This document shows positions 36,464 to 40,645 of a DNA stretch of 64,000 nucleotides, in pieces. Numbering within the stretch: position 1 is the first letter of the stretch; every line of letters begins with the position of its first letter. A program made the translations under genes and the position numbers. The DNA lies in contig JAGWLG010000016.1 in NCBI GenBank assembly GCA_028864975.1, positions 8,034 through 72,033 on the forward strand, given 5' to 3'. Origin of the DNA: Thermoplasmata archaeon (GTDB lineage: Archaea; Thermoplasmatota; Thermoplasmata; Lutacidiplasmatales; UBA184). The notes beneath the pieces are model-generated. The model was not told where the DNA came from, did not search any database, and was given only the letters and a program-made list of their open reading frames with translations.

Positions 36464-37354
36464 CTACTCCAACGCCTCAAGCACACGGCGGCGCCATAGC
36501 GTGGGGTGTTGCTCAGGGTCGGTCCGGATCCGGATCGTACGGACATCAGAACGGACTCGAGGCTGGTAGGTCGGCCATAGCCTGACCAAGGCGCGATGGA
36601 GGACGCGAACGGTCTTCTCGGGGCCCGGAAAGTGAAAGGGAGTGGGAGCGTGCGGCGTCCCGCGGACGCGCTCGCGGCGAAGGCAGTTCCGAATGGGTGG
36701 GTCGAGCCAGAGGATGGTGACCGGCGCTCCGGAAGCGAAGAGACGTTCCTGAATGGGCACGCGGTGTGGTCCCACTCCAGAGAACTCGAGGATCGCACTC
36801 ATCCCCTGGCGAGCCCCCACGAGGAACATCTCGAGCGCGTGCATCTCCGCCCGCAAACTCCCATCCCCGACCATGCGACGGAAGTCGCTGAGGGAGTGGA
36901 AAGGAAAGCCAGTGATCCTCGAGAGCCAGCGCCCGCCGGTCGTCTTTCCGGCGCCGGGGACACCGATCAAGAGGATCTTGCGGGCGTGGATCCCTCTGTC
37001 GAGCGCTGGAGGGGAGAGAGATGGCCGGCGAGACCGCGCCCTCCCGGCCGAGGCAGCGGTCCACCAGAGAGCTCGAGAGGTCGTGATTGCTCTTCCAAGT
37101 CCTTCTCGCCGAGAGGAATCTGTGCGGGCTCGACCATCCCAGAAAGAAGATGGAGGGCGGTGCTCGCGCGATCCGCCAAGGTTTCCACTCGCGACCGCGA
37201 GATTCGCCTCGGCGAAGGAGCCCACTCCGAGATACGCACAGATCAATCGGCGGAGCAGATGATCATAGGTCTCCCCCGGACGACGCACCGCATCGAGCCG
37301 AGCCTTCGTGCTCGTCTTGATCCGCAGTGTGACCCACGCGCGCCGTCTCGCCAT
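36464..37354 (-). CDS. RHH/antitoxin-like N-terminal domain fused to a P-loop NMP/polynucleotide-kinase-like domain
   Basis: N-terminus WVTLRIKTSTKARLDAVRRPGETYDHLLRRLI; Walker A ILLIGVPGAGKTT, SLSDFRR, lid motif CLRRERVR. No in-frame stop between the two domains. Confidence 0.7.
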   Translation of the reverse strand: MARRRAWVTLRIKTSTKARLDAVRRPGETYDHLLRRLICAYLGVGSFAEANLAVASGNLGGSREHRPPSSFWDGRARTDSSRREGLGRAITTSRALWWTAASAGRARSRRPSLSPPALDRGIHARKILLIGVPGAGKTTGGRWLSRITGFPFHSLSDFRRMVGDGSLRAEMHALEMFLVGARQGMSAILEFSGVGPHRVPIQERLFASGAPVTILWLDPPIRNCLRRERVRGTPHAPTPFHFPGPEKTVRVLHRALVRLWPTYQPRVRSDVRTIRIRTDPEQHPTLWRRRVLEALE

Positions 37355-37440
37355 GCCGAGAGGAGTCCGACCGACCGCATGAACCCCGGCCGAACTGGGT
37401 GAAAGGTTCAATGCACCGACCGCCGGGCGGGGGAGTTCCG

Positions 37441-37698
37441 CTACCTGGCGTACACGGACGAACGGTGACCCACCTTCAGGACCAAAACCCGAAGGCGGAG
37501 CTCCTCGATATCGACGATAACTCGAAAGTCACCGACCCGAAGGCGGTACGCATCGAATCCAACCAATCGCCGGAGATGGCGATGCGGGACCACTGAGAGC
37601 GACCCCACTTTGGTGAAGATCCGCCTCGCGACAACACGATCGAGCTTCGCGAGCTCCCTTTCGGCGGACTCCGACCAGATGACCTGGTACCGGGTCAC
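37441..37698 (-). CDS. relE: RelE/ParE-family toxin (RelE/StbE-type mRNA interferase)
   Basis: YQVIWSESAERELAKLD...YRLRVGDFRVIVDI...VLVLKVGHRSSVY. GTG start overlaps the antitoxin stop. Confidence 0.92.
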   Translation of the reverse strand: MTRYQVIWSESAERELAKLDRVVARRIFTKVGSLSVVPHRHLRRLVGFDAYRLRVGDFRVIVDIEELRLRVLVLKVGHRSSVYAR

Positions 37699-37925
37699 AG
37701 GCTCAGCCTTTCGCGCACCTGATCGTGCGTGCGGAGTCTCCCGGCTCGAATCTCCGCTCGGGCGGCCCGGATCTCTCTCTTCGTCTGAGCGTCGAGCTCT
37801 CGAAGGTCCTCGAGCAGATTCCGGAGGACCTCGTTGTACGTCTCCCGCGGGTGAGTCTTTCTTCGGTTCAACTCGGCCCGCATGGCCAGGTCAACCTGGA
37901 TCGTGGTAACGGACAAACGGTGCAT
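37695..37925 (-). CDS. Cognate antitoxin, archaeal RHH-like (TTIQV...ETYNEVL family)
   Basis: VTTIQVDLAMRAELNRRKTHPRETYNEVLRNLL; lies directly upstream of the toxin with a GTGA overlap; GGGAGAG before ATG 37925. Confidence 0.85.
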   Translation of the reverse strand: MHRLSVTTIQVDLAMRAELNRRKTHPRETYNEVLRNLLEDLRELDAQTKREIRAARAEIRAGRLRTHDQVRERLSL

Positions 37926-37946
37926 CTCTCCCAAACTCGTTCGGCG

Positions 37947-37993
37947 GCAATAGATAACCACTACGGGCTATTAGAGGCTATAGGAAGCCATAG
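37947..37993. promoter_or_regulatory. Five degenerate heptamers at exact 10-bp spacing upstream of the TA operon (putative operator)
   Basis: GCAATAG (37947), ACCACTA (37957), GCTATTA (37967), GCTATAG (37977), GCCATAG (37987). Confidence 0.55.
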
Positions 37994-38077
37994 ATGAGGG
38001 CCGACGCTAGCCACCATCCCTCGCCGGCGCAAAAGCACCGGGAGACCCGGATAGCGAGTTCGCCGGGGGGCCAGCTT

Positions 38078-38850: not shown

Positions 38851-39294
38851 CTATCCAGGCGGCGATTCGGAAGAAGCCCGCTCTCGTCGACTCCGCACCG
38901 GCACCAGGAGATGCCATTCCTTCTCGCTGCGGTAGTATTCCAGCTGAGGGCGCTCGGGGTCGGTGGCGTAGGCCTTGACCATCTGCGGGAAGTTCTTCGC
39001 GAAGGCCGCGACCTTCGCCTCTTCCCCGAGGAGCTTCCGTCGGACATACGTACCTCCCGGTAGAGTACCGGTCTCGATCTGCATCGTCAGAGGTTCGTCG
39101 GTACTGACCTGCTCAACACAGGCATAGTACTCTTCTCCGCCCTCGACGGGCCGGAAGGCTCCGTAGAAATGTCGGCCCTTGAGCGTGGGAAGTTTCGATT
39201 CGAGCAGGTCAAAGGCGGCTGGGGGTCCCGCGCCCCGCATGTCGGCTCTCACGCGAAGCACGGGCATGTCCTTGCGTTCGACGAAGGAGTCCAT
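38851..39294 (-). CDS. GyrI-like small-molecule-binding domain protein
   Basis: AFDLLESKL...FYGAF...YYACVE...GTLPGGTYVR...LEYYRS pattern; GAGGAAGCC before ATG. Confidence 0.7.
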   Translation of the reverse strand: MDSFVERKDMPVLRVRADMRGAGPPAAFDLLESKLPTLKGRHFYGAFRPVEGGEEYYACVEQVSTDEPLTMQIETGTLPGGTYVRRKLLGEEAKVAAFAKNFPQMVKAYATDPERPQLEYYRSEKEWHLLVPVRSRRERASSESPPG

Positions 39295-39394
39295 GGCTTC
39301 CTCGTTACGGAAGGATGGCGACACGAATGAGCCCTTCGGGACATGGGTCCGCCAAGAGCGGGCTTCATAGTCCACGACCCGTTGGGTGCCCCCC

Positions 39395-40645
39395 ATGACC
39401 GACGTCTTCCTTGCCCCCGGAGTCCGCACACCCTTCGTCAAAGCGGGCGGGGTGTACGCTCAACGATCGTCGCTGGACCTCTCCGTCCCTGTCGTGAAGG
39501 CGATGGTCGCGAAGGCTCGACCGGATCTCTTCTCCTGGGGTCAGGTGATCCCCGACGCCACCATCTCGAACATCGCGCGCGAGCTCATCTTCGAAGCCGG
39601 GCTCGATCCGACCATCCCGGCCTACGCGACAGTGATGGCATGTTCCTCGAGCTTCATCGGGTCCTTGCAGCTCGCGGGCATGATCGGGAAGGGCGGGGCC
39701 CACCTCGCTCTTGCGGGGGGGGTCGATAGCATGAGCCACTTCCCGATCGCGCTCAAGTACAAGATCGCGGAGAAGCTCGTGGGCCTCTTCGCGAAGGACC
39801 CCTCCGCCGCGATGGAGACCTTCGGGCAGCTCAGCCTGGACGACTTCTACCTGCCGGTCACCGGCTGGGCGAACCGCGTCAGTGGTCGCACCATGGGCGA
39901 CCACATGGAGGAGACCGCGAAGGAGATGGGGCTCACCCGCGAGGAGCAGGACCACCGCGCCCTTCTGAGCCACCAGGGAGCCATCCGCGGGCAGGACACG
40001 GGTTTCTACACGGACCTCCTCGTCCCGTTCGGCGGGGTCGATCACGACACCTTCCCTCGACGGGACACGTCCATGGAGAAGCTCGCAAAGCTCTCCCCGG
40101 TCTTCGACAAATCCGGCAAGGGCACGATCACCGCTGGGAACTCCTCTCCCCTGACGGACGGGGCGGCGGGGGTTTGGATCGGGGACGAGGAGGGTCTTGG
40201 CCGGCTCGGGGCCAAGCCCACGGTCCGACTTGTCGATTGGCAAGTGGGCGCCGTGGACTTCCGGGTCGATGGAATGCTCATGGCGCCGGCCCGGGCGATC
40301 CCTCGGCTCCTTGCGCGCCACCAACTGCGTGCCGATCAGATCGCCCTCTGGGAGATCCACGAGGCGTTCGCGGCGCAGGTAGTCGCCAACATCAAAGCGG
40401 TCATGGACCCGAAGTACCGCAAGGAGAAGGCTGGGGTCGATTTCGACCTCGGGACCTTCCCTTCCGATCGTGTCAATCCCCACGGAGGGTCCGTGGCGCT
40501 CGGACACCCCTTCGCGGCCACGGGGGCACGGATCCTGAGCCAGGCGTCCAAGGAACTTGCCTCCTTGCCGGGGGGGTCGAAGGCCATCGTCTCGGTTTGC
40601 GCCGACGGGGGACAGGGCACCGTCGCCCTCTTGGAACGCGTGTAA
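39395..40645 (+). CDS. Acetyl-CoA C-acyltransferase (thiolase), TFE/FadI-type
   Basis: Catalytic fingerprints ACSS, EIHEAFAAQ, GGSVALGHPFAATG, CADGGQG. Confidence 0.93.
   Translation: MTDVFLAPGVRTPFVKAGGVYAQRSSLDLSVPVVKAMVAKARPDLFSWGQVIPDATISNIARELIFEAGLDPTIPAYATVMACSSSFIGSLQLAGMIGKGGAHLALAGGVDSMSHFPIALKYKIAEKLVGLFAKDPSAAMETFGQLSLDDFYLPVTGWANRVSGRTMGDHMEETAKEMGLTREEQDHRALLSHQGAIRGQDTGFYTDLLVPFGGVDHDTFPRRDTSMEKLAKLSPVFDKSGKGTITAGNSSPLTDGAAGVWIGDEEGLGRLGAKPTVRLVDWQVGAVDFRVDGMLMAPARAIPRLLARHQLRADQIALWEIHEAFAAQVVANIKAVMDPKYRKEKAGVDFDLGTFPSDRVNPHGGSVALGHPFAATGARILSQASKELASLPGGSKAIVSVCADGGQGTVALLERV

Follow-up and report, generated by a model that had tools for sequence, protein, structure and literature searches.

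A P-loop kinase gene joined to an antitoxin-like domain behind a RelE toxin-antitoxin pair: a probable stop-loss fusion in a Thermoplasmata archaeon

RESULTS AND DISCUSSION

The window analyzed here is a 64,000-nucleotide stretch of contig JAGWLG010000016.1 from the genome of a Thermoplasmata archaeon (assembly GCA_028864975.1). Between positions 36464 and 38000, its minus strand carries a toxin-antitoxin (TA) locus of three consecutive open reading frames (ORFs): a ribbon-helix-helix (RHH) antitoxin gene (RHH1), a gene for a RelE/ParE-family toxin, and, after a gap of 86 bp, an ORF of 296 codons that begins with a second antitoxin-like domain (RHH2) and ends with a P-loop kinase. These ORFs and the gap lie exactly where a first-pass annotation of the DNA had described them; it had proposed an undescribed three-part module in which a DNA-binding kinase works together with RelE. 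Our analysis favors another explanation. The first two genes form an ordinary RHH-RelE pair, while the third ORF is probably a young, lineage-specific fusion created by stop loss, whose two domains have not evolved a shared function. A recent stop loss is indicated because the antitoxin and the kinase are separate genes in relatives, the joint looks non-coding, and a CGA codon is found at the site of the TGA stop of paralogous antitoxins.

The joint between the two domains

The 296-aa ORF extends from ATG at 37354 to the stop codon at 36464, and its longest form starts from TTG at 37411. It comprises the RHH2 gene body (residues 1–77, 37124–37354), the joint (residues 66–122, 36989–37159), and the kinase domain (residues 123–296 and the stop codon, 36464–36988). 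Codon log-odds, for which 1,283 long ORFs from the genome served as the training set, clearly separated the domains from the joint. RHH2 scored +0.10 per codon in frame versus −0.42 and −0.32 in the other frames, and the kinase +0.10 versus −0.40 and −0.33. The joint scored −0.398 per codon in the ORF frame, a value that equals the median of off-frame windows and lies at the 0.05th percentile when 57-codon windows of real genes are read in frame. The GC content at third codon positions fell across the joint from about 0.8 to 0.43–0.57, and residues 60–111 were modeled by AlphaFold2 (AF2) with a predicted local distance difference test (pLDDT) score below 50. No homologues of the joint were found in any frame in Pfam, in the genome itself, or in 301 genomes of the class (this set includes the unpublished genome G228, on which no claim is based).

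The uninterrupted frame had been taken as a sign that the fusion is real. The frame itself is real, being identical in a second assembly, but its continuity says little: windows of 57 codons drawn at random from the genome lack a stop codon half of the time (50%), so that the odds of an accidental in-frame junction are roughly one in six. The linker is also shorter than the approximately 90 aa initially supposed, since the antitoxin-like part has the whole length of an antitoxin (about 74–77 residues), leaving an unassigned joint of about 50–60 residues. The scan for start codons agreed with the first-pass annotation that neither ATG nor GTG precedes the kinase in frame, and extended this to TTG: none of the three occurs between V44 (37225) and TTG at 36970, which already lies within the first kinase strand. 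The kinase domain therefore has no canonical start of its own.

The best-scoring frame of the joint was +1 (+0.008 log-odds per codon). This frame contains an ORF of 56 codons, from ATG at 37137, overlapping the end of the RHH2 homology, to TGA at 36967; within the sequence TTGA, this stop overlaps the TTG that lies in the ORF frame in the first kinase strand. Searches with its peptide in the 301 class genomes returned only noise-level matches with internal stops. The ATG in the position expected for the start of a translationally coupled toxin, together with the frame score, suggested that the joint is a lost RelE-like toxin, but this idea found no support: BLASTP against four toxins, a RelE-like hidden Markov model (HMM) run with filters off, and Pfam all gave empty results, and local DNA alignments against shuffled sequences reached a z-score of at most 2.3. 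The joint was also considered as the scar of a repeat or mobile element and had no significant blastn or tblastn match in its own genome.

The second antitoxin-like domain

Residues 9–41 of RHH2 matched the Pfam family DUF7557 (PF24434) with 25.9–26.1 bits, just over the cut-off of 25. An antitoxin profile built without RHH1 and without RHH2 matched RHH1 over its whole length (E 1.8e-10, probability 96.9%) and RHH2 over residues 1–49 only (E 3.1e-10). The N-terminus of the 296-aa ORF had been called a paralog of the neighboring antitoxin, and the common profile bears out this relationship at the level of the family. BLASTP gave no direct alignment between RHH1 and RHH2; because a profile built without either one matches both, they are related, as far as sequence comparison goes, only through their family. 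RHH2 is closer to antitoxins elsewhere in its own genome and in the family of that genome (36%–46% identity). A word search of a set of 5.8 billion proteins found no close relatives of RHH2 with enough shared words. The AF2 model of RHH2 contains helices at residues 14–23, 30–42, and 47–56.

The conserved C-terminal antitoxin segment, which is kept in RHH1 and matches Pfam Unstab_antitox in a paralog from the same genome, is not recognizable in RHH2, where the Arg-Ala-Gly-Arg block is replaced. A separate antitoxin gene would have 70–80 codons, a stop, and a toxin gene behind it; RHH2 has no stop, and no toxin-like sequence downstream of it was found by BLASTP, HMM, or DNA alignment.

TGA is the stop codon of RHH1 and of each of four related antitoxins (5/5). 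MAFFT placed the last residue of the paralogs at R77 of the 296-aa ORF. Alignment by eye, with W72 set on the tryptophan of the paralogs, gave 10 identical nucleotides of 15 around the stop in comparison with the paralog from the same genome, and put the TGA of the paralogs on codon 75 (R75, 37130–37132), which is CGA and differs by one transition. This codon lies within three codons of the stop of the paralogous antitoxins. We infer that CGA at codon 75 replaced a TGA stop, in a register that is uncertain by three codons.

Uniqueness of the fusion

The search for relatives of the kinase among 1.84 billion representative proteins yielded 103 sequences, 30 of them with E below 1e-10. None of 102 kinase relatives contained the RHH antitoxin domain according to Pfam and a custom HMM, and the word search of the 5.8-billion-protein set with the fusion returned only the query itself. 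We also inspected 28 genomic loci of kinase relatives from Methanoregula, Methanocalculus, ANME-2, Methanoperedens, and Bathyarchaeia. In 24 of them the kinase has its own start 1–24 codons before the first strand; of the other four, three lack a recognizable P-loop and one is cut at a contig end. An RHH-kinase fusion was found at none of the 28 loci. The first-pass annotation had named separate RHH and kinase genes in relatives as an outcome that would speak against its module, and this is largely what was observed; a conserved three-part module is not supported, and no result obtained here ties the kinase to RelE activity or to RNA ends. No publication on DUF7557, on RHH-kinase fusions, or on the assembly accession was found in the literature.

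Three genomes of the same genus gave no match to the kinase. When the locus was used as a 5.3-kb query against them, only the methyltransferase and regulator genes matched, and nothing in the TA-kinase stretch did. One of these genomes (G002) keeps the methyltransferase-regulator pair with different DNA upstream of it, so that the region upstream of the methyltransferase gene, which is the gene that follows the kinase ORF, is not conserved there. By these comparisons, the TA-kinase block lies in a variable region or island.

The continuous frame could have resulted from an assembly or sequencing error, given that the 3.6-Mb genome (67% GC) is a metagenome-type assembly of 124 contigs and that the best-scoring frame changes two times along the joint, a pattern expected from compensating indels. 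This origin is very improbable. The identical 296-aa ORF is encoded in a second deposited assembly, in which the contig has another length, and the two assemblies differ by 3 single-nucleotide polymorphisms in 6,891 bp, none within the TA-fusion block, and by no indels. A one-off assembly error is unlikely because the second assembly carries the identical block, and long genes nearby are intact.

The kinase domain and its family

The kinase domain (residues 123–296) was modeled with a pLDDT of 93. Its fold is that of shikimate, gluconate, and polynucleotide kinases, with template modeling (TM) scores of 0.6–0.67 at 14%–21% identity. Shikimate kinase was the best PDB profile match over most of the domain (E 7e-8) and gave a structural match with a TM score of 0.67 at 18% identity, with only the general fold in common; for polynucleotide kinase of the T4/Clostridium Pnkp type, which is characterized by an acceptor-activating Asp-x-x-Arg motif following strand 2 and by a surface that binds nucleic acid, the TM score was 0.62. 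The match to SKI (PF01202) reached 13.3 bits, below the cut-off of 22.1, and that to AAA_33 (PF13671) 24.8–26.9 bits with a cut-off of 27. Judging from these matches, the domain is not a housekeeping nucleoside monophosphate or shikimate kinase. The earlier comparison with Zeta toxins was not borne out: Zeta_toxin (PF06414) did not match the kinase even at E up to 10. When the family was scanned against Pfam (97 proteins, namely 96 relatives and the query), AAA_33 was matched by 61 proteins and Zeta_toxin by 5. Searches against anti-phage defense families (PADLOC) gave only P-loop-level noise.

The domain belongs to a small P-loop kinase family, AAA_18/AAA_33-like, found in methanogens, Bathyarchaeia, and bacteria, with which it has common motifs at 30%–42% identity: the P-loop, Ser-Ile-Asp..Arg, Gly-Asp-Gly, Leu-Glu-Phe-Ser-Gly, two prolines, and a tryptophan. 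The nearest relatives are found in methanogens. Members of the family are stand-alone proteins of 170–200 aa or carry N-terminal WG repeats, and the protein studied here is the only one with an RHH domain. The family is uncharacterized and widespread and has the shikimate kinase/polynucleotide kinase fold.

The P-loop and the other kinase motifs quoted in the first-pass annotation are present. The Asp and Arg residues of the reported DxxR motif also exist, but not in the register of the family: its Asp-x-x-Arg block reads Ser-Asp-Phe-Arg here, with Asp shifted by one residue, and the Ser-Ile-Asp..Arg block has become Ser-Leu-Ser-Asp.Arg through the D156S replacement, which puts Ser at a near-invariant Asp. 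Of 21 strongly conserved columns of the family, 18 are kept; the three changes (D156S, G169A, and W264Q) are within the range seen in other members.

Genomic contexts of the kinase relatives

Two kinds of genomic context were found. In the first, the kinase gene (about 175–190 aa) forms a tight operon of overlapping genes with a zf-B_box/rhodanese protein (about 275–300 aa) and an NTP_transf_2 nucleotidyltransferase (about 275–290 aa). This operon (loci L027, L064, L065, and L066/L067, and two further places) is often located beside genes for glycosyltransferases, epimerases, and radical-SAM/SPASM proteins, and its gene content looks like that of an undescribed pathway modifying a small molecule or glycan. 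In a variant of this arrangement, a WG-repeat-kinase fusion is followed by a nucleotidyltransferase-tyrosine-phosphatase protein. Kinases with N-terminal WG repeats or standing alone were noticed in ANME-2, Methanoperedens, and one genome of the class to which the window belongs. Their partner, encoded before or after the kinase, is a protein of about 480–500 aa in which a Pol-beta-type nucleotidyltransferase occurs together with a tyrosine-phosphatase domain (L030:3260-5963, L036, L041, and L002:1294-3304).

The second context was found in the Methanomicrobiales branch, which is closest to the protein studied here. Its kinases are stand-alone and located in variable regions rich in TA and defense-type genes, with ParE, DUF7557, MazF, MazE, DUF5615, SocA/Panacea, Fic, ADP-ribosyltransferase, RhuM, and YhcG nuclease as neighbors. 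The order RHH-ParE-kinase was found in one Methanocalculus and one Methanocorpusculaceae genome, and the order kinase-DUF7557-ParE in three related genomes. In 187 kb of kinase flanks there were 15 RHH/ParE matches, 12 of them within 1 kb of the kinase, a count that is a lead and not a statistic, as the loci are partly inter-related and the search profiles contained several of them. These arrangements weakly hint at a functional link between the kinase and TA pairs. In partial agreement with the first-pass interpretation, relatives of the kinase do recur near RHH-ParE/RelE pairs in methanogens, but there they are unfused.

In a Methanocorpusculaceae genome, RHH-ParE pairs flank the kinase on both sides. 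A Methanocalculus genome carries nearly identical copies of the last part of this kinase and of the DUF7557 gene downstream of it, but the ParE that follows is broken there (loci L045:3299-5185, L046:3812-5149, and L047). The near-identity suggests recent transfer of the block between genera.

Proposed origin of the fusion

In the scenario that we consider the most plausible, an orphan DUF7557 antitoxin gene would have kept its DNA-binding RHH part and lost the conserved C-terminal segment. Termination would have been lost by a change to CGA where paralogs carry TGA, and translation would read through about 50 codons that had not evolved as coding sequence in the ORF frame, into the kinase gene. 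If translated, probably from the transcript of the TA operon, the product would be an RHH dimer bearing a pair of kinase domains, each on a disordered tether. DNA would be bound through the RHH part, with the usual toxin-binding tail absent, and the kinase, which is probably active, would phosphorylate a hydroxyl acceptor. Such a fusion is probably transient.

Several points weigh against this scenario. The kinase is intact and coding-like, with only three deviant columns of 21, and the fusion may keep it expressed, since it would have no canonical start otherwise. Unusual codon use can occur in disordered linkers. Remnants of a former toxin gene or of an earlier start of the kinase could not be demonstrated, the position of CGA relative to the stop carries an uncertainty of 3 codons, and RHH-ParE pairs adjoin kinase relatives more than a uniform spread over the flanks would predict.

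Alternative explanations and known systems

The strongest alternative, although we regard it as unlikely, is a selected three-component module in which the RHH-kinase works with the RelE pair as a DNA-bound regulator, as a second toxin restrained in cis, or as an enzyme acting downstream of RelE. The common strand, the distance of 86 bp from RelE, the lack of a visible promoter or terminator in this gap, the intact kinase fold, and the RHH-ParE-kinase and kinase-DUF7557-ParE orders in two and three genomes, respectively, are consistent with such a module, for which fusions of kinases with an antitoxin or a DNA-binding domain provide precedents (PMC4826407, PMC3602430). It is opposed by the singleton status of the fusion, the statistically non-coding joint, the missing C-terminal antitoxin segment of RHH2, and the displaced near-invariant Asp. 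Moreover, the TA partners near kinase relatives are mixed (ParE, MazF, MazE, DUF5615, and Fic), as in variable islands and not as in a fixed partnership, and another large branch of the kinases sits in the kinase-nucleotidyltransferase operon.

The precedents differ from our protein. In EzeT of Escherichia coli, a zeta-type kinase toxin carries its antitoxin domain in cis; the protein was reported in several E. coli strains and related organisms and is thought to be a fused two-gene operon (PMC4826407). The fusion studied here likewise is a single polypeptide that begins with an antitoxin-type domain and ends with a P-loop kinase, but it does not match Zeta_toxin, its antitoxin part is a DNA-binding RHH domain with a degenerate neutralizing tail, and it is a singleton. 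BzdR consists of a helix-turn-helix (HTH) DNA-binding domain, a linker, and a shikimate-kinase-like sensor domain, which is an inactivated kinase domain binding benzoyl-CoA, and shows that such a fusion can regulate (PMC3602430). Both proteins link a DNA-binding domain to a domain of the shikimate kinase fold, but RHH takes the place of HTH here, and the BzdR-type NCBIfam model (NF006015) gave 20.4 bits against a cut-off of 204, covering the P-loop only. By these sequence comparisons, the fusion protein belongs to neither the EzeT nor the BzdR group. Omega-epsilon-zeta loci comprise an RHH repressor and a TA pair in which the kinase is the toxin and epsilon its antitoxin. An RHH repressor, a TA pair, and a P-loop kinase thus also occur together in one locus there, but in our case the toxin is RelE and the kinase comes from another family.

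A somewhat less probable version extends the partnership to the whole kinase family. The fusion would then act as a 'Rosetta stone', revealing the family as an unrecognized partner of archaeal RHH-RelE/ParE modules, either a toxin or an accessory third component, with the RHH domain captured in cis to regulate or restrain the kinase by analogy with EzeT.

It is improbable that the third ORF is a dead remnant, in which the kinase decays after loss of its start and the long frame is a high-GC accident giving no stable product. The kinase indeed lacks its own start codon, Ser replaces a near-invariant Asp, the tail of RHH2 is degenerate, and open frames are common by chance, but the codon statistics of the kinase clearly favor the ORF frame, its three changed columns do not exceed the variation of other members, and its structure was modeled with confidence.

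Even less likely is the production of two proteins, with the kinase translated from a non-canonical ATC at 36991 or 36976 or from TTG at 36970. The +1-frame ORF (37137–36967) ending in the TTGA overlap with this TTG, the best score of the +1 frame in the joint, and the stretch GAGGGATCC at 36999–36991, which by eye resembles the complement of the 16S 3′ end, would fit this option. However, initiation at TTG would leave out the greater part of the first beta strand, an element present in all relatives, the Shine-Dalgarno-like stretch abuts ATC without a spacer, and the +1 peptide has no homologue.

The locus serves above all as a warning. In a genome with 67% GC, a long ORF spanning two domains says little about the existence of a fusion protein, and probable stop-loss readthrough can be exposed by codon statistics combined with comparison to paralogs. 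Should the protein be produced, it would capture in nature the attachment of a DNA-binding domain to an enzyme, a path that has been proposed for BzdR and EzeT. Of greater use as a lead is the family of kinases, which is uncharacterized and occurs in TA-rich islands of methanogens and in the nucleotidyltransferase operon.

The RHH1-RelE pair and surrounding features

The RHH1 gene (37695–37925, 76 aa), recognized over its full length by the independent profile, matched the Pfam family DUF7557 with 13.7 bits, below the cut-off of 25. Its stop codon overlaps the start of the toxin gene (37441–37698, 85 aa) by the four nucleotides GTGA (37698–37695). The toxin matched ParE_toxin (PF05016) over profile positions 1–89 with 38.1 bits (cut-off 23, E 2.3e-9), while the narrower NCBIfam model RelE_StbE gave 13.3 bits, below its cut-off of 27.9; it could also be aligned with RelE-like toxins encoded downstream of DUF7557 antitoxins in related genomes. 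Thus, the 85-aa toxin has its cognate antitoxin gene immediately upstream and translationally coupled, and the two genes are an ordinary type II pair with nothing unusual in the pair itself. In type II systems of this family, the antitoxin represses the operon and neutralizes a ribosome-dependent mRNA interferase, and by analogy RHH1-RelE would behave as a standard module.

As in RelBE/ParDE-type pairs generally, a small RHH antitoxin gene precedes the gene for a RelE/ParE-fold toxin with a 4-nt overlap, and several paralogous pairs occur in one genome. The difference is the extra downstream RHH gene, which is not paired with a toxin and continues into a kinase. The genome gave eight DUF7557-type matches with E values of no more than 0.1, and four of these exceeded the Pfam cut-off; the partners, among those inspected, were RelE-like or putative PIN-type toxins. 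One paralogous pair of a DUF7557 antitoxin and a RelE-like toxin is located in the same genome at C16 (L011:1489-2018); in the corresponding pair of a genome of the same genus (L004), the toxin is broken by a stop.

The region preceding RHH1 (37926–38000, minus strand) is AT-richer than its surroundings and, as read from the sequence only, is a candidate archaeal promoter/operator. Three ATAGC-like words about 10 bp apart were seen by eye at 37947–37993, ahead of the TA operon; the repeat finder (≥9 nt) did not report them. An operator repeat common to both RHH genes was considered and rejected, since the repeat finder detected no repeat of at least 9 nt common to the regions upstream of RHH1 and RHH2. 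The GC-rich 86-bp spacer between RelE and RHH2 (37355–37440, minus strand) contains no obvious TATA-like element or T-run. The 296-aa ORF is probably transcribed together with the TA pair, because no promoter, terminator, or strong ribosome-binding site of its own is visible.

The archaeal small-subunit rRNA model matched this genome over its full length with 1,488 bits. Upstream of the TA block, at 38851–39441, a gene encodes a 196-aa protein with a weak match (E 0.001, below the cut-off) to Cass2, an integron-associated effector-binding protein.

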